In this document: positions 2 through 5,623 of the stretch, piece after piece
How the letters are laid out: every line of letters starts with the position of its first letter
Position numbering within the stretch: the first letter of the stretch is position 1
NCBI RefSeq assembly: GCF_003334385.1
Contig: NZ_QOWN01000080.1
Direction: 5' to 3' (one strand)
Length of the DNA stretch: 5,623 nt
From: Escherichia coli
GTDB taxonomy: Bacteria; Pseudomonadota; Gammaproteobacteria; Enterobacterales; Enterobacteriaceae
Program-made: the position numbers and the translations under genes
Notes under the pieces: generated by a model
What the model was told of the DNA's origin: nothing
What the model saw: the letters and a program-made list of their open reading frames with translations, nothing else
Database searches by the model: none

Positions 2-748
2 CAGGCACGGGCACAGAACGCGCAGTATCTGAGCGAACGCCTTAAGGACCAGGCAGCCTTTTATGCCGAATCGGATGCGCAGCGTGCGGACTGGCAGAAA
101 GGGCTGCAGGAGGGGTTCAGTAACTGGGTGGATAATGCGTCCGATTACGCCTCACAGGCAGCACAGCTGGCGACGGAGGGTATCTCAGGGATGGTGAATA
201 ACATCACGGAGATGCTGAACGGGAATAAAGTGGAATGGCGCAACTGGGCCTCATCCGTACTGCAGGAAATATCAAAAGTTCTTATGAATGCCGCGATTGT
301 CAACGGGATCAAGACGGCGGCAAACAGTATGTCCGGTGCAGGAGGATTTATTGGCAGTATTGGTGACTGGCTGGGCGGTGCGGTGGCCAATGCAAAAGGC
401 GGCGTGTATACCTCGGCAAACCTGAGTGCGTACAGCAACAGCATTGTGGATACGCCCACGTACTTTGCCTTTGCAAAAGGGGCCGGGCTGATGGGGGAAG
501 CCGGACCTGAAGCCATAATGCCCCTGACCCGGGCGGCGGATGGCTCGCTGGGCGTACGTGCCGTGGGCAGGATGAACGGGAGTGCGGGTCTGGTGTATTC
601 CCCGGTCTACCACATCGCCATTCAGAATGACGGGGCCAACGGTCAGATAGGGCCGGAGGCGGCAGGCAGCCTTGTTCAGTTGATTGACCAGCGGGTGCAG
701 GCGGTGATGCTGTCCATGCGACGAGACGGAGGAATGCTGAGTGGCTGA
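2..748 (+). CDS. H: Tail tape-measure protein (lambda gpH-like), C-terminal part; 5' end lies upstream of the window
   Basis: Frame 2 is open from position 2 to the TGA at 746-748 (the ORF track reports only the 128..748 part). Gly/Ala/Ser-rich C-terminus typical of tape-measure proteins. Position immediately upstream of an M homolog, with H stop overlapping M start. Assignment rests on synteny and recalled similarity, not a search. Confidence 0.7.
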   Translation, partial: QARAQNAQYLSERLKDQAAFYAESDAQRADWQKGLQEGFSNWVDNASDYASQAAQLATEGISGMVNNITEMLNGNKVEWRNWASSVLQEISKVLMNAAIVNGIKTAANSMSGAGGFIGSIGDWLGGAVANAKGGVYTSANLSAYSNSIVDTPTYFAFAKGAGLMGEAGPEAIMPLTRAADGSLGVRAVGRMNGSAGLVYSPVYHIAIQNDGANGQIGPEAAGSLVQLIDQRVQAVMLSMRRDGGMLSG

Positions 749-1082
749 GATAAAAACGCTGCATCTGGTCCCGCGTGAAGGGATGCAGGTGAGTGAGAAA
801 CCGTCGGTGGTGAGGGTCCGGTTTGGTGACGGTTATGAACAGCGCCGACCGACGGGACTGAATGCCCGACTGAAGACATTTCAGGCAGTGTTCCGGGTGA
901 CGGATGAGGCGACCCGGCGCTGGCTGGATGAATTTTTATCGTGGCATGGTGGTTACCGTGCCTTTTTGTGGAAACCCCCGAAACATAACCGGACGGTCAG
1001 GGTGGTGTGCCGGGAGTGGAGTATTACGGATAACGCCAGGTACAGCGATTTCAGTTGTATGATGGAACAGGTAATAAGATAA
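741..1082 (+). CDS. M: Minor tail protein M (lambda gpM-like)
   Basis: 113-aa ORF. GTG start at 741 preceded by GGAGGAA (728-734). Contains VRFGDGY and GLNA-LKT motifs that I recall from lambda M. Start overlaps the H stop, suggesting translational coupling. Confidence 0.8.
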   Translation: MAEIKTLHLVPREGMQVSEKPSVVRVRFGDGYEQRRPTGLNARLKTFQAVFRVTDEATRRWLDEFLSWHGGYRAFLWKPPKHNRTVRVVCREWSITDNARYSDFSCMMEQVIR

Positions 1083-1288
1083 GTTTTTGAGAAAAAACCT
1101 AAAAGCATCGTTTATTAATTTGCTTGCTTGTTATTTTTGTTTTGTCTTGACATAAAGTGCTATCAAAGTTGTTTTTTTACATTTTGAAACAAAATAAAAA
1201 TTGAACCCGTAATTTAATTTACAATATTTTGAGTTTTGTTCATGACATCTCTATGCATGAATAGTTCAGTTTAAATAAGGATTAAATC
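1083..1288 (+). promoter_or_regulatory. AT-rich upstream region of the porin gene; probable promoter/regulatory region
   Basis: Sharp drop in GC relative to M. TTGACA at 1147-1152 and TTGAAC/TACAAT-like hexamers at 1201-1225 are present but none has ideal spacing. Shine-Dalgarno AAGGA at 1278-1282 precedes the porin ATG. The exact promoter cannot be fixed from sequence alone. Confidence 0.35.
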
Positions 1289-1357
1289 ATGAAAAAAATG
1301 ACAGTGGCACTTTCAGCTGTGGCAGCAGCTGTAATTTTTGCAGCGGGGGCGCAGGCT
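1289..1357 (+). other. Predicted Sec signal peptide of the porin (cleavage after AQA)
   Basis: Basic N-terminus (MKK), hydrophobic core, A-x-A site directly before the conserved mature porin N-terminus AEVYNK. Confidence 0.6.
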
Positions 1358-2452
1358 GCAGAAGTATACAATAAAGATGGCAATAAACTTGATGTGTATG
1401 GGCGTGCAACTGCACTCCATTATTTCTCCAGTGATAAGGGGGATGATGGAGATAAGACATACGCACGTCTGGGCTTTAAAGGTGAAACTCAGATTAATGA
1501 CCAGTTGACTGGTTTTGGTCAGTGGGAATATCAGTTCTCTGGTAATAAAGCTGAATCAGAGGGTGCTGCGGGTAATAAAACCCGTCTTGCATTTGCAGGT
1601 CTGAAGTTTGGTGAGTTTGGCACCATTGATTATGGTCGTAACTATGGTATTGCGTACGATGTTGGTTCTTATACTGACGTATTACCAGAGTTTGGCGGTG
1701 ATGGCTGGACCCAGACCGATAACTTCATGACAGCCCGTACTTCCGGGGTATTAACCTATCGTAATACAGATTTCTTTGGGCTTGTCGATGGCCTGAATTT
1801 TGCGGCACAGTACCAGGGTAAAAATGATCGGGGTGATCTCCGGAAAGCTAATGGTGATGGTCACGGTTTCTCAGCCAGTTATGAATATGAAGGTTTTGGT
1901 ATCGTTGCCGCATATATTAATGCGGACCGAACCAATAATCAGGAAAAAGGTCTGAATGGTACTCTGACGATTGAACAAACTGATCCTTTAACCGGTAAAG
2001 TGACTGAAAAGCAGATCGTTGTTGATTCCGGTAGTGTTGCAAAAGGTAAACACGCTGAGATGTGGGGAGTCGGACTAAAATACGATGCTGACAACCTTTA
2101 CCTGGCTACAACATATTCCGAAACTCAGAATCTGACGACCTTTGGTGATAAAGGAGTTGCAGATAAAGCGCAAAACTTTGAAGCGGTACTGCAGTATCAG
2201 TTTGATTTCGGTCTGCGTCCATCTCTGGCATTCCTGCAGTCTCGTGCTCAGGATGTCATTGTAGGTGGTAAAAACTATGGTGACCAGGATTTGGTTAAGT
2301 ATGTTGACGTAGGTGCGAAATATTACTTCAATAAAAATATGTCCACCTATGTTGATTATAAAATCAATCTGGTTGATGAGAATAAGTTTACCAGGGATGC
2401 GGGCATTGCAACGGATGATATCGTTGCTGTTGGTATGACTTATCAGTTCTGA
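1289..2452 (+). CDS. General bacterial porin, OmpC/OmpF/PhoE family, prophage-encoded (moron)
   Basis: 387-aa ORF with an RBS. Predicted signal peptide [23 protein letters not shown], then mature N-terminus [15 protein letters not shown], nearly identical to the enterobacterial OmpC N-terminus as I recall it. L3-loop PEFGG motif present. C-terminal ...YQF with terminal Phe typical of beta-barrel OMPs. AT-rich codon usage unlike the flanking tail genes. Confidence 0.9.
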
Positions 2453-2471
2453 TGATTACTGGTAAATAAAT

Positions 2472-2526
2472 ACAGGCCATCTGCCCTCACAGATGGCCTG
2501 TATCAGTGGAAGTTATATTTCCACTG
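2472..2526 (+). repeat. Two adjacent perfect hairpins in the porin 3' UTR
   Basis: Hairpin 1: ACAGGCCATCTG (2472-2483) pairs with CAGATGGCCTGT (2490-2501), 12-bp stem and 6-nt loop. Hairpin 2: CAGTGGAA (2504-2511) pairs with TTCCACTG (2519-2526). Neither is followed by a T-run on the + strand, so they look like stabilising or processing stem-loops rather than canonical terminators. Confidence 0.5.
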
Positions 2527-2610
2527 GTCACTGCGATCAGCTATTAGCTGATTTAATTTTCATTTTATTACCTTCATCGTTTTTGATTTTTTAATTGAAC
2601 TATTTTATCA

Positions 2611-2634
2611 GGGGCGCATTGCGCCCCTTTTTTT
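2611..2634 (+). terminator. Rho-independent terminator closing the porin cassette
   Basis: GGGGCGC-ATT-GCGCCCC stem-loop (2611-2627) followed by TTTTTTT (2628-2634). Lies 15 nt upstream of the L start codon. Confidence 0.75.
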
Positions 2635-2648
2635 ATGGGTGGATGTTT

Positions 2649-3347
2649 ATGCAGGAGATCAACGAAGAAAGCCTGAATGAGTCGGTTAAATCAGAGCAGT
2701 CACCGCGGGTGGTACTCTGGGAAATTGACCTGACGGTGCAGGGTGGTGAGCGGTATTTTTTCTGTAATGAGCTGAATGAAAAAGGGGAGCCGGTCACCTA
2801 GCAGGGGCGGAAGTACCAGGCATACCCGATTGACGGCAGCGGCTTTGAGATGAACGGGAAAGGGAGCAGTGCCCGCCCGTCACTGACGGTGTCGAATCTG
2901 TTCGGGCTGGTTACCGGGATGGCGGAGGATTTGCAGAGCCTGGTGGGGGCCACGGTGGTTCGTCGCCGGGTGTATGCGCGTTTTCTGGATGCGGTGAATT
3001 TTGTGGCAGGCAATCCGGAGGCTGACCCGGAGCAGGAGCTGACGGACCGCTGGGTGGTGGAGCAGATGTCGCAGCTCACAGCCATGACGGCCTCGTTTGT
3101 GCTGGCGACACCGACGGAGACGGACGGTGCGTTGTTTCCCGGCCGCATCATGCTGGCGAACACCTGTATGTGGACCTACCGCTCTGATGAGTGTGGTTAC
3201 ACGGGCGGGGCGGTGGCGGATGAGTTCGATAAACCCACCACCGATATCCGTAAGGACAGATGCAGCAAGTGCATGCGCGGGTGTGAACTGCGCAGGAATG
3301 TCGGCAATTTTGGCGGTTTCCTTTCCATTAATAAACTTTCGCAGTAA
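2649..3347 (+). pseudogene. L: Minor tail protein L (lambda gpL-like) interrupted by an in-frame amber codon at 2799-2801
   Basis: ATG at 2649 (MQEINEESLNE...) to TAA at 3345-3347 is 699 nt, matching the lambda L length as I recall it. One TAG at 2799-2801 splits it into 2649..2801 and the track ORF 2850..3347, but the 16 codons between the stop and the next ATG (QGRKYQAYPIDGSGFE) continue in frame and read as tail-protein sequence. The track ORF start at 2595 would span the terminator hairpin and is rejected. Confidence 0.7.
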
Positions 3348-3357
3348 ATCCCGGTTT

Positions 3358-4101
3358 ATGACACAGACTGAATCAGCGATTCTGGCGCATACCCGGCGGT
3401 GTGCGCCTGCGGAGTCGTGCGGCTTCGTGATAACCACGACGGAGGGCGAGCGGTACCTGCCCTGTGTGAATATCTCCGCAGCGCCGGAGGCGTATTTTCG
3501 TATTGCCCCGGAAGACTGGCTGCGGGCGGAGATGCAGGGTGAGATTGTGGCGCTGGTTCACAGTCATCCCGGTGGTCTGCCCTGGCTGAGTGAGGCAGAC
3601 CGGCGACTGCAGATAAAAAGTGCCCTGCCCTGGTGGCTGGTCTGCCGGGGTGACATTCACAAATTCCGCTGCGTTCCGCACCTGACCGAACGGCGCTTTG
3701 CGCACGGGGTGACGGACTGTTACACGCTGTTCCGGGATGCATACCATCTGGCAGGCATTGATATGCCGGATTTTCACCGTGAGGATGACTGGTGGTGCAA
3801 CGGTCAGAACCTTTACCTGGACAATATGGAGGCAACGGGCTTTTACCGGGTGCCCCTGTCCTCTGCACTGCCGGGCGATATCCTGCTGTGCTGCTTCGGC
3901 GCATCGGTGGCTAATCATGCCGCCATTTACTGCGGCAACGGTGAACTGCTTCACCATCTGCCTGAACAACTGAGTAAACGGGAGAGGTATTCCGAAAAAT
4001 GGCAACGACGAACGCATTCTGTCTGGCGTCACCGCCACTGGCACGCATCTGCCTTCACGGGGATTTACAACGATTTGGCCGCCGCTTCAGCCTGTATGTG
4101 A
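3358..4101 (+). CDS. K: Tail tip assembly protein K (lambda gpK-like) with JAB/MPN (JAMM) and NlpC/P60 domains
   Basis: ATG at 3358 (MTQTESAILAH...). JAMM motif HSHPGGLPWLSEAD (H-x-H-x7-S-x2-D). NlpC/P60-like Cys (GVTDCYTLF) with downstream His residues (NHAAIYCG, LLHH). The track ORF start at 3097 is an out-of-frame read-in over the L 3' end and is rejected. No obvious Shine-Dalgarno; start is 10 nt after the L stop. Confidence 0.8.
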   Translation: MTQTESAILAHTRRCAPAESCGFVITTTEGERYLPCVNISAAPEAYFRIAPEDWLRAEMQGEIVALVHSHPGGLPWLSEADRRLQIKSALPWWLVCRGDIHKFRCVPHLTERRFAHGVTDCYTLFRDAYHLAGIDMPDFHREDDWWCNGQNLYLDNMEATGFYRVPLSSALPGDILLCCFGASVANHAAIYCGNGELLHHLPEQLSKRERYSEKWQRRTHSVWRHRHWHASAFTGIYNDLAAASACM

Positions 4102-4679
4102 ACACGGCGGCGGAAGCCATCCGCGCCCTGTCGCTGCAGGTGCCGGGATTCCGCCGTCAGATGAACGAAGGCTGGTACCAGATACGCATTGCCGGTGAGG
4201 ATACGGCACCGGAGGCGGTGTATGCCCGCCTTCACGAACCACTGGGTGAGGGAACGGTTATCCATATTGTGCCGCGACTGGCCGGAGCCGGAAAGGGCGG
4301 ACTACAGATTGTGCTGGGGGCAGCTGCCATTGTGGGGTCTTTCTTCACGGCCGGAGCATCAATGGCGTTATGGGGTTCAGCCCTGGCAGCCGGTGGTTTT
4401 TCTGCCACCACGATGCTGTTTTCACTGGGTGCCAGCATGATACTGGGCGGTGTGGCCCAGATGCTGGCCCCGAAGGCAAAAACACCGGATTACCGCGCAA
4501 CGGATAACGGCAGACAGAACACGTATTTTTCCTCACTGGACAACATGATTGCCCAGGGCAACCCGATGCCGGTGCCCTACGGTGAAATGCTGGTTGGTTC
4601 ACGACGTATCTCTCAGGACATCAGCACCCGTGATGAAGGCGGAGACGGAAAGGTGGTGGTTATTGGTCGACAGGGATAA
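3999..4679 (+). CDS. I: Tail assembly protein I (lambda gpI-like)
   Basis: 226-aa ORF with RICL-GDLQRFGRR near the N-terminus and a Gly/Ala-rich hydrophobic segment followed by QNTYFSSLDNM, as I recall for lambda I. Overlaps the K 3' end by 103 nt in another frame. Confidence 0.8.
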   Translation: MATTNAFCLASPPLARICLHGDLQRFGRRFSLYVNTAAEAIRALSLQVPGFRRQMNEGWYQIRIAGEDTAPEAVYARLHEPLGEGTVIHIVPRLAGAGKGGLQIVLGAAAIVGSFFTAGASMALWGSALAAGGFSATTMLFSLGASMILGGVAQMLAPKAKTPDYRATDNGRQNTYFSSLDNMIAQGNPMPVPYGEMLVGSRRISQDISTRDEGGDGKVVVIGRQG

Positions 4680-4692
4680 AACATAAAAAAAT

Positions 4693-4717
4693 CCCGCAGT
4701 GATCGCGGAGCTGCGGG
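4693..4717 (-). terminator. Probable intrinsic terminator oriented for minus-strand transcription
   Basis: Inverted repeat CCCGCAG (4693-4699) and CTGCGGG (4711-4717). On the minus strand the stem is followed by T7 (plus-strand A-run 4685-4691). No T-run follows it on the + strand. Confidence 0.45.
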
Positions 4718-4788
4718 GACAGACAAATGAAGATTAATGTTAAGGAGTTGTTTTTGTTACTCGGGCAAAAAAACACTAACGCAGCGAA

Positions 4789-4816
4789 ATTATAAGCGCC
4801 ACAGTCAGTGTGTGAA
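4789..4816 (-). promoter_or_regulatory. Candidate sigma70 promoter on the minus strand (TTCACA-N16-TATAAT)
   Basis: Read on the minus strand: TTCACA (complement of 4811-4816), 16-nt spacer, TATAAT (complement of 4789-4794). Fires toward the minus-strand terminator at 4693-4717. Confidence 0.35.
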
Positions 4817-4890
4817 AATGTGAAGATATTCAGAATTTTTATGCCATTACCGGTTTTAACCAACAGGATTATCGGTGGGCATGAAAGAAA

Positions 4891-4918
4891 ACCCCGGTAT
4901 CTGCTGATACCGGGGTTT
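4891..4918. terminator. GC-rich hairpin with T-rich flanks on both strands; possible bidirectional terminator
   Basis: ACCCCGGTATC (4891-4901) pairs with GATACCGGGGT (4906-4916), 4-nt loop. Followed by TTCTGTTT on the + strand and by TTTCTTTCAT on the minus strand. Confidence 0.4.
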
Positions 4919-5021
4919 CTGTTTAGCATGGCAGAAATGTGTTTCATGCTTTTCGGGCGAAGGATATCCGACTTCTGTACGGAATGGCAAGTGGCGGTTA
5001 ATTTATTCAGGGGAAGGCTGT

Positions 5022-5623
5022 ATGGGAAAAGGTGGCGGTAAGGCACACACGCCTCGTGAGGCGAAGGATAATCTCAAATCCACGCAGATGATGAGTGTGA
5101 TTGATGCGATTGGTGAGGGACCGATAGAAGGTCCGGTGAAGGGACTGCAGAGTATTCTGGTGAACAAAACCCCGCTGACGGACACGGACGGTAATCCCGT
5201 GATACACGGTGTGACTGCGGTCTGGCGTGCCGGGGAGCAGGAGCAGACACCGCCGGAAGGCTTTGAGTCCTCCGGGGCGGAAACCGGACCAGGCGTGGAG
5301 GTGACGAAGGCAAAGCCGGTGACGCGCACCATTACGTCCGCGAACATTGACCGCCTGCGGGTGACCTTCGGGGTGCAGTCACTGGTGGAGACCACCTCAA
5401 AGGGTGACCGTAACCCGACGTCTGTCCGCCTGCTGATTCAGCTTGAGCGTGGTGGTAAATGGATGACGGAAAAGGATGTCACCATTAACGGCAAGACCAC
5501 CTCGCAGTTCCTGGCGTCGGTGATTCTGGATAATCTGCCGCCCCGGCCCTTTAACATCCGGATGGTCAGGGAGACGGCGGACAGCACCACGGACCAACTG
5601 CAGAACAGAACGCTGTGGTCGTC
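5022..5623 (+). CDS. J: Tail tip / host-specificity protein J (lambda gpJ-like), N-terminal part; continues beyond the window
   Basis: ATG at 5022 preceded by GGGGAAGG (5010-5017). N-terminus MGKGGGKAHTPREAKDNLKSTQ... and later GEQEQTPPEGFESSG, PPRPFNIRM, STTDQLQN match what I recall of the lambda J N-terminus. Frame is open to the window end. Absent from the ORF track because no stop codon falls in the window. Confidence 0.85.
   Translation, partial: MGKGGGKAHTPREAKDNLKSTQMMSVIDAIGEGPIEGPVKGLQSILVNKTPLTDTDGNPVIHGVTAVWRAGEQEQTPPEGFESSGAETGPGVEVTKAKPVTRTITSANIDRLRVTFGVQSLVETTSKGDRNPTSVRLLIQLERGGKWMTEKDVTINGKTTSQFLASVILDNLPPRPFNIRMVRETADSTTDQLQNRTLWS

Follow-up and report, generated by a model that had tools for sequence, protein, structure and literature searches.

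Why does a lambda-like prophage carry the gene for a general outer-membrane porin among its tail genes, and what could this gene do for the lysogen? The question is raised by a 5,623-nucleotide (nt) stretch of Escherichia coli DNA (contig NZ_QOWN01000080.1 of assembly GCF_003334385.1, hereafter referred to as the window), which represents the tail-tip module of such a prophage and carries, between the genes for the minor tail proteins M and L, an open reading frame (ORF) of 387 amino acids (aa) at positions 1289-2452 of the plus strand. Small hydrophilic antibiotics enter the cell mainly through porins, to which many phages, colicins and antibodies also bind. Taking all evidence together, we think it probable that the ORF encodes a functional porin, that it belongs to a moron mediating lysogenic conversion, and that its transcript ends in a 3′ untranslated region (3′UTR) resembling the regulatory RNAs MicF and IpeX. 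Phage-borne porins of the Lc/NmpC type are already known; the distinguishing features of the porin described here are its position in the tail module, a long and hypervariable extracellular loop L5, and a MicF-like seed within an ipeX-like 3′UTR.

The porin gene and the insert that carries it

The translated ORF matches Pfam family Porin_1 (PF00267) with 465 bits, residues 29-387 covering the complete model (1-337 of 337), and possesses both a signal peptide and the C-terminal aromatic residue of the family, the last four residues being TYQF. The mature porin of 364 aa occupies positions 1358..2449 of the plus strand, exactly as given in the original prediction: codon 24 begins at position 1358, and the codon of Phe387 ends at 2449, directly before the stop codon (2450-2452). 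Cleavage is placed after AQA (AQA/AEVYNK), since residue 1 of crystallised OmpC chains is aligned with Ala24. This leaves a signal peptide of 23 aa (1289..1357, plus strand) of the NmpC/Lc type, with 70% identity to the NmpC/Lc signal peptide.

The best sequence matches in the PDB are OmpC, OmpK36, OmpF and PhoE, with E values from 1e-128 to 1e-108 (OmpC, 1.7e-128). An AlphaFold model based on 94 sequences contains 16 barrel strands (mean predicted local distance difference test score [pLDDT] 73.7, predicted template modelling score 0.73), and a Foldseek comparison with OmpC, OmpF and OmpK36 gave target-normalised template modelling scores of 0.86-0.90. The motif of the constriction loop L3, LPEFGGD, is found at residues 132-138. 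In the OmpF pore, we take K16, R42, R82 and R132 to form the basic cluster opposite the acidic residues D113 and E117. The counterparts of R42, R82, R132 and D113 (R60, R99, R150 and D130) are invariant across 94 homologues and E134 is nearly so, and K16 is replaced by R39.

The NCBIfam model “porin OmpC” (NF007841), a subfamily model and not an equivalog, is passed narrowly (496.7 bits at a cut-off of 484), which explains the RefSeq name of the protein. A genuine OmpC would group with OmpC and would be encoded at the micF-ompC-rcsD locus; in a neighbour-joining tree, the porins encoded between M and L instead form a clade of their own, nearest to NmpC, Lc and OmpD and apart from OmpC/OmpN and OmpF/PhoE. 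Due to the pipeline label, carrier genomes seem to hold two or more copies of ompC, which may mislead ompC typing and resistance inference.

The gene lies within an AT-rich block (1083..2648, plus strand) that comprises a regulatory region, the porin gene and the structured 3′UTR. The GC content is 0.30-0.46 from about 1050 to 2700, compared with 0.55-0.64 in both flanks. The lineage of the M-L porins is prophage-borne, and its genes lie in every case on an AT-rich insert between M and L. Related phages match these flanks at 92-94% identity; the best of 272 phage records match the window in two to three pieces that add up to about 69-72% of its length, the porin stretch being missing. Since M and L are adjacent in the related phages lacking this stretch, the block 1083-2648 is an insert of the moron kind. 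Both the adjacency of its flanking genes in relatives and its deviant base composition agree with this classification. Its own terminator is clear, while upstream of the gene only an OmpR-box-like site is found, with no –35/–10 pair. That the porin insert is a moron for lysogenic conversion is, in our view, likely.

The OmpR-box-like sequence TTTACATTTTGAAACA (1176..1191, plus strand) is identical at 16 of 16 positions to a stretch 164-179 nt before the start of K-12 ompC, which is presumably the OmpR site C1. About 0.01 such matches are expected per shuffled window, and the core TTTACAT is retained in all alleles. This similarity suggests that the regulatory region of the porin may be related to that of chromosomal ompC. 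A weaker match to the micF-ompC intergenic region (25 of 29 positions) is located at 1139-1167.

Loop L5 and selection on the porin

With 387 aa, the precursor is indeed longer than typical porins, as the original prediction had supposed. The K-12 porins range from 351 to 377 aa (OmpC 367, OmpF 362, PhoE 351, OmpN 377, NmpC 365), and close homologues outside the lineage of the M-L porins mostly have about 349-378 aa, with a few outliers at 386-486 aa; NmpC/Lc entries of 385 aa differ only by a 20-aa extension from an upstream start. Within the lineage itself, lengths of 384-387 aa are common.

Alignment and the AlphaFold model place the extra residues in the extracellular loops L5 and L7, where surface-exposed insertions had been anticipated, and none in the barrel strands or the periplasmic turns. 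Loop L5 (residues 214-254; 1928..2050, plus strand) connects strands 9 (203-213) and 10 (255-267) of the model and contains an insertion of about 25 residues, which interrupts the alignment with solved OmpC at query residues 220/250. The K-12 porins align 14-20 residues in L5, which puts the insertion at about 21-27 residues. None of the sequence-matched solved porins aligns across it, HMMER either splitting the alignment at 220/250 or treating the segment as an insertion. The model predicts a β-hairpin at residues 223-246 (nt 1955-2026), with DSSP strands at 223-231 and 238-246 and pLDDT means of 68-87 over blocks of 10 residues. Loop L7 (residues 320-333; 2246..2287, plus strand), at the tip of the strand pair 309-325/328-346, exceeds its counterparts in OmpC, NmpC and OmpF by 3-4 residues, and the short L4 resembles that of OmpF and PhoE. 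We are highly confident that the ORF encodes a 16-stranded general porin whose extra residues map to loops.

Variation was quantified among 20 distinct members of the lineage as the mean pairwise difference per region. L5, with a length of 16-41 residues, shows a value of 0.46, compared with 0.19-0.23 for the other external loops, 0.04-0.09 for most strands and 0.04 for L3. L5 is the hot spot of the lineage for both length and sequence. The hairpin is absent from some alleles, others have a different cassette in L5, and in three an 8-residue insertion in L6 is found instead; allele L007 differs from P0005 by a tandem duplication of NGTQTV. The motif DP(L/V)TG(D/K)VTEK is retained in several of the 387-aa alleles. 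Apart from the loops, the periplasmic turn T2 (residues 108-110; 1610-1618), which reads GEF, ADL, ADV, GDF or otherwise, shows an L5-like mean pairwise difference of 0.48, a variability that is unexpected for a periplasmic turn.

The ratio of nonsynonymous to synonymous substitutions (dN/dS, ω) was determined by the Nei-Gojobori method over six alleles with a dS of about 1. It amounts to 0.05 for barrel and turns, 0.00 for L3 and 0.14 for the external loops together; the value of L5 (0.40) is the highest in the protein. The porin gene is clearly maintained by selection, with barrel and L3 under strong purifying selection, and L5 is strongly relaxed or diversifying, which fits an exposed loop. 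The earlier idea of surface loops under selection for evasion on a conserved barrel is in line with the variable L5 and the conserved barrel and L3; positive selection is not proven, because ω stays below 1.

The 3′ untranslated region and its predicted pairing

The 184 nt between the porin stop codon and the end of a Rho-independent terminator (2453-2636) fold with a z-score of –8.5 relative to shuffled sequences. Three hairpins, all on the plus strand, were compared in seven sequences. Hairpin 1 (2472..2501), a 12-bp stem with a CCCUCA loop, and the 8-bp hairpin 2 (2504..2526) are both 100% paired, each with three base pairs changed on both sides. Hairpin 3 (2536..2552), with a 6-bp stem and a larger loop in other alleles, is 97.6% paired and has one such pair. 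Altogether, the seven compensatory pair changes go along with 97% pairing, versus about 40% in slid controls, and none of 500 shuffles reaches the observed value. The terminator (2610..2636, plus strand), identified by a terminator scan, consists of a GGGGCGC/GCGCCCC stem, invariant in all alleles, and a run of U residues; it ends 12 nt before the start codon of L. Within hairpin 2, the stretch 2507-2526 is complementary to K-12 ompF codons ~82-88 at 19 of 20 positions (blastn-short, E 6e-4). Because it lies inside a stem that shows compensatory changes between alleles, this complementarity is probably due to chance.

Hairpin 3 and the terminator are separated by a conserved single-stranded segment (2553..2585, plus strand) that Rfam, alignment and predicted duplexes identify as a MicF-like seed (TTATTACC), with the core TTATTACCTT at 2565-2574. 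The best Rfam match over 2546-2636 is MicF (RF00033), at full length and with 28.3 bits. In a local alignment, the 3′UTR matches MicF nt 10-43, the ompF-binding region, with a score above all of 1000 dinucleotide shuffles. All E. coli alleles retrieved by BLAST share an identical seed core, while the surrounding 3′UTR of the window is 64-71% identical to that of alleles L008, L009 and L011.

A covariance model built from this 3′UTR detects the ipeX region downstream of nmpC in prophage DLP12 (33 bits, E 7e-4). This relation appeared only through the covariance model and a comparison of architectures: blastn-short of the 3′UTR against the DLP12 nmpC/ipeX region found nothing above chance, and Rfam returned no IpeX-family match even for the genuine DLP12 ipeX region. 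Local similarity to ipeX is significant for alleles L008 and L007 and is confined to the terminator end; between the 3′UTR of the window and ipeX no significant local similarity was found (221 of 1000 shuffles reach the score). Among species-representative genomes, a strict seed pattern gave no match and a loose one a single match, in a Desulfonatronovibrio metagenome-assembled genome, which was rejected as chance. This match scores, by construction, 37 bits with the covariance model of the porin 3′UTR, which implies that the ipeX matches of 31-34 bits lean heavily on the terminator.

Pairing with host porin mRNAs was assessed for the seed only, against 55-nt start regions, with shuffles and 61 real start regions as controls. 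This design replaced an RNAduplex comparison of full-length RNAs with 125-nt targets, which produced long and uninformative duplexes (157 of 1000 shuffles were equally good). The seed of the window is predicted to form a duplex of –24.4 kcal/mol with the ribosome-binding region of ompF, a value as low in 0 of the 61 controls, and one of –21.5 kcal/mol with ompC, as low in two of them. Over four alleles, the predicted energies are –19 to –24 kcal/mol for ompF (z –2.3 to –3.9) and –21.5 to –27 kcal/mol for ompC (z –2.9 to –4.4), compared with non-significant values of –9.5 to –14.7 kcal/mol (z –1.6 to +1.1) for phoE, ompN and the prophage's own porin. Ranked among the 61 control start regions, ompF comes first and ompC third for the seed of the window, and both come first for the L008 seed. 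The predicted duplex spans the Shine-Dalgarno sequence and the start codon of ompF.

When applied to MicF and IpeX, this test agrees with what has been reported, namely pairing of MicF with ompF and of IpeX with ompC more than ompF (PMC7177473, PMC12197685). For the single-stranded part of DLP12 ipeX (L002, 2367-2455, minus strand), pairing is predicted with the ompC 5′UTR, from about –32 to the start codon (–26.9 kcal/mol, z –5.4, 0 of 61 controls as low). IpeX is said not to act through simple complementarity, and the base-pairing explanation seems worth re-testing for ipeX.

On the basis of these observations, we suggest the following sequence of events. The porin would be expressed from the prophage via an OmpR-responsive promoter of its own, exported by the Sec pathway and inserted as a trimer. 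Its variable exposed loops would give the lysogen a surface unlike that of OmpC/OmpF cells and would change recognition by porin-binding phages, colicins and antibodies. The structured 3′UTR may release, or act as, a MicF-like or IpeX-like antisense RNA, the seed of which would pair with the ribosome-binding sites of host ompF and ompC and spare that of the prophage porin. In this way, the prophage version would take the place of the major porins in the lysogen, as reported for the Lc porin and ipeX of phage PA-2.

In our view, the chances that the 3′UTR would repress ompF and ompC in trans are evenly balanced. It is a more tentative idea, which we favor slightly less than its negation, that the tail-module porin morons in general form a porin-swap cassette, in which one transcript would provide both a loop-variable porin and a MicF-derived antisense RNA that silences OmpF and OmpC and leaves the cassette's own porin unaffected. 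If so, about 2% of E. coli genomes would have rewired phage, colicin and antibody recognition as well as outer-membrane permeability, and MicF-type seeds would have been recruited by phages more than once, ipeX being a second, ompC-biased version. In any case, a loop-variant prophage porin, possibly combined with repression of OmpF and OmpC, would alter permeability and surface recognition together, and the 3′UTR lends itself to a direct test of MicF-like regulation by a phage-borne RNA.

Competing explanations, related systems and occurrence

Several points weigh against the proposed functional porin with a MicF/IpeX-like 3′UTR. Expression, export, surface effects and the function of the RNA are inferred. 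A scan for σ70 promoters upstream of the porin and upstream of the seed revealed no convincing –35/–10 pair, and the OmpR-like box is located 113 nt before the porin start codon versus 179 nt in ompC, which makes the promoter geometry unclear. The MicF match stays below the threshold of its family (28.3 bits versus an Rfam gathering score of 79), and the covariance model, built from six such elements, finds K-12 micF at its annotated coordinates with a weak E value of 0.26. AU-rich RNA yields duplex energies easily, as illustrated by the two of 61 controls that match the value of the window for ompC. Regarding the protein, positive selection in L5 is not demonstrated, because ω is below 1, and a dS of about 1 is near saturation; the confidence of AlphaFold is moderate in L5, and L3 is poorly modelled. 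Finally, the receptor-binding region of the tail protein J (last 135 residues, taken from strain G1/2) shows no sequence match among solved J receptor-binding domains, including those of the OmpC-binding A8 gpJ and of lambda J. Superinfection exclusion as a motive is speculative and cannot be tied to OmpC or OmpF, because the receptor of the prophage is not deducible from J.

Some of these points are shared by an explanation in which the porin functions in conversion and the 3′UTR acts only in cis: the hairpins would shield the mRNA from 3′ exonucleases, the last one would terminate transcription, and the MicF-like stretch would be an inherited or convergent AU-rich spacer. Neither hairpins nor a terminator are unusual in an mRNA, the MicF score is under the Rfam threshold, and AU-rich seeds pair readily, some control start regions reaching similar energies. 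However, the seed core is invariant within a 3′UTR that has diverged to 64-71% identity between the window and L008, L009 and L011, the similarity to MicF falls exactly on its target-binding nt 10-43, the predicted pairing is specific for two host porin mRNAs and spares the prophage's own porin, and the equivalent ipeX region of nmpC/lc has been reported to repress OmpC and OmpF (PMC12197685, PMC7177473). We therefore regard a purely cis-acting 3′UTR as somewhat unlikely, although it is the alternative to be taken most seriously. A different role has to be considered for L5, the hairpin of which could have a positive function of its own as an adhesin-like tip, a pore-gating lid or a shield over neighbouring subunits. 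Its prediction as an ordered β-hairpin and not as a disordered loop is in line with this idea, as is the motif DP(L/V)TG(D/K)VTEK kept in several alleles of 387 aa. But lineage members without the hairpin, with another L5 cassette or with an L6 insertion indicate that no single L5 structure is required, and the dN/dS of L5 is the highest in the protein, which together make such a function improbable.

The remaining two explanations concern the origin and the fate of the gene. The original prediction implied a host/phage mosaic, with a mature N-terminus derived from ompC, a foreign signal peptide and loops that diverged under selection for evasion. It described the N-terminus as almost identical to that of OmpC and the signal peptide as divergent, and both statements are literally correct: the first 12 mature residues are identical to those of K-12 OmpC, and the signal peptides share only 33% identity. 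But the same 12 residues are present in OmpN and differ at just one or two positions from OmpF, PhoE and NmpC, so that they represent a motif common to the porin family. Residues 24-60 are no nearer to OmpC (70% identity) than to NmpC (70%) or Salmonella OmpD (78%), and the signal peptide, 70% identical to that of NmpC/Lc, is typical of the lineage; the impression of a host-like N-terminus next to a divergent signal peptide arose because the comparison was made with OmpC only. For each segment of the protein, the closest sequences belong to its own lineage, and no segment is nearer to OmpC than to the NmpC/OmpD group. Furthermore, megablast of the insert gave matches in 214 of 5426 complete E. 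coli genomes; as ompC, ompF and phoE are present in every genome, the insert shares no identical 28-nt word with these chromosomal porin genes in the other more than 5200. Recombination between host and phage porin genes was rejected, as there is no trace of it with ompC, ompF or phoE at the DNA level and the tree shows a separate clade beside NmpC, Lc and OmpD; we consider a mosaic very improbable. Even less credible is a decaying passenger, i.e. a captured and functionless porin gene in a defective prophage. This could be suspected from an amber codon in the L gene of the window and from the several structural genes of the G1/2 prophage annotated as frameshifted, but all alleles read have an intact ORF, which is annotated as a porin in the listed records, the residues lining the pore do not vary, dN/dS values at a dS of about 1 are as low as 0.05 (barrel) and 0.00 (L3), and the gene survives even in a prophage remnant ridden with insertion sequences (L012, see below).

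The functional porin moron favored here can be compared with several known systems. Its nearest named relatives are Lc of phage PA-2 and NmpC of DLP12 (68-69% identity by BLAST, about 73% over aligned mature positions), which are also general porins encoded by prophages and have signal peptides of this type. However, they form a separate clade, with long branches in between, and their genes are located between Q and S on the opposite strand, whereas the tail-module porin gene lies between M and L on the strand of the late operon and belongs to a lineage with a long hypervariable L5. The parallel extends to the 3′UTR: as in the DLP12 ipeX region, the stop codon of a prophage porin is followed by an untranslated stretch (here 2453-2636) with three hairpins, a single-stranded seed complementary to the ribosome-binding region of a host porin mRNA and a Rho-independent terminator, at which the partial sequence similarity is found. 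According to published reports, IpeX is produced within the porin transcript and represses OmpC and OmpF (PMC12197685, PMC7177473). The tail-module seed differs from that of ipeX and resembles MicF, the chromosomal repressor of ompF translation encoded beside ompC. MicF and the tail-module element share a length of about 90 nt, a Rho-independent terminator and the linkage to a porin gene; the core UUAUUACC(G/U)UCAU matches the ompF-binding nucleotides of MicF, and the predicted duplex covers the Shine-Dalgarno sequence and the start codon of ompF. In contrast to MicF, which is encoded upstream of its porin gene and divergently, the element is located downstream on the same strand, inside the porin 3′UTR, no promoter of its own was found, and ompC, with which MicF does not pair, is a second predicted target of its seed.

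Salmonella OmpD and the porins OmpC, OmpF, PhoE and OmpN share with the tail-module porin the fold, the L3 constriction motif and the N- and C-terminal motifs (63-72% identity over aligned mature positions), but its L5 is 21-27 residues longer than that of any of them, and unlike chromosomal OmpC it is encoded off the ompC locus and falls outside the OmpC/OmpN branch. Like the lambdoid morons lom and bor, the insert places an additional gene, encoding an outer-membrane protein, between otherwise adjacent genes, deviates from them in base composition and has a terminator of its own. Whereas we take lom to encode a small 8-stranded protein of the Ail/Lom type and bor a lipoprotein, the moron described here provides a 16-stranded diffusion porin and a structured 3′UTR.

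The 3′UTR is present in 107 of 5426 complete E. coli genomes (about 2%), in all cases on the chromosome and in at least five sequence classes. The insert alleles differ by 10-25% at the DNA level, the L5 region being least conserved, and in one E. coli allele the M gene upstream is just ~50% identical to that of the window. The order M-porin-L is found in further E. coli chromosomes, in metagenome contigs and in one Citrobacter farmeri assembly, which also carries the same RNA element. Twelve metagenome contigs retrieved with a seed-plus-terminator pattern have the porin upstream, L downstream or both wherever the contig is long enough. In some E. coli genomes, the porin insert is present twice, in different prophages. 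Among isolated phages, the nearest porins show 68.7% identity; their genes are located on the opposite strand, between Q and the genes for lysis. Plasmid-borne porins, with at most 68.7% identity, were set aside as a different group. A search of the literature, in which absence is weak evidence since most of what was covered is open-access, returned nothing relevant beyond IpeX on tail-module prophage porins or MicF-like phage RNAs.

In strain DETEC-P1056 (L012, NZ_CP116169.1, 1366-2670), the porin gene and the 3′UTR are intact, while the tape-measure gene and L are fragments, and this remnant of a tail module is flanked by IS66-family and other transposase remnants. The retention of the porin after decay of the prophage suggests host-side selection. 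A 378-aa E. coli porin (P0104; L031-L033, gene at 4001-5137) carries a different insertion at the same L5 site and forms a sister branch of the tail-module porins in the tree. Its gene belongs to a non-phage island and directly precedes a sulfatase-family gene, beyond which a gene for a TonB-dependent receptor is located.

The window is 99.4% identical to a region in the chromosome of E. coli strain G1/2, in which the prophage adjoins btsS/btsR. To the left of the insert, the window contains the 3′ end of the tape-measure gene (128-748) and the M gene (741..1082, plus strand), which matches PHROG 14, “minor tail protein”, with an E value of 1e-35 and is annotated as “phage tail protein” in G1/2. 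The L gene (2649..3347, plus strand), the intact G1/2 copy of which scores 365 bits with TIGR01600 (phage_tail_L), follows on the right, together with the tail genes K (3358-4101) and I (4098-4679) and the start of J (from 5022). In the window, L carries an in-frame amber codon (TAG) at 2799-2801, where the L proteins of G1/2 and of the lambda type have tryptophan (TGG). It results from a single G-to-A change at 2800, G being present in G1/2. As judged from this reading, the prophage copy in the window would be unable to make full-length L, unless the codon is suppressed or due to an error in sequencing. Genes I and J, which we presume to be adjacent in lambda, are separated here by a non-coding spacer of 342 nt with lower GC content (4680-5021), which is also present in related phages without the porin. 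It contains a GC-rich hairpin at about 4693-4716, directly after the stop codon of I, and a perfect 13-bp hairpin at 4889-4918.

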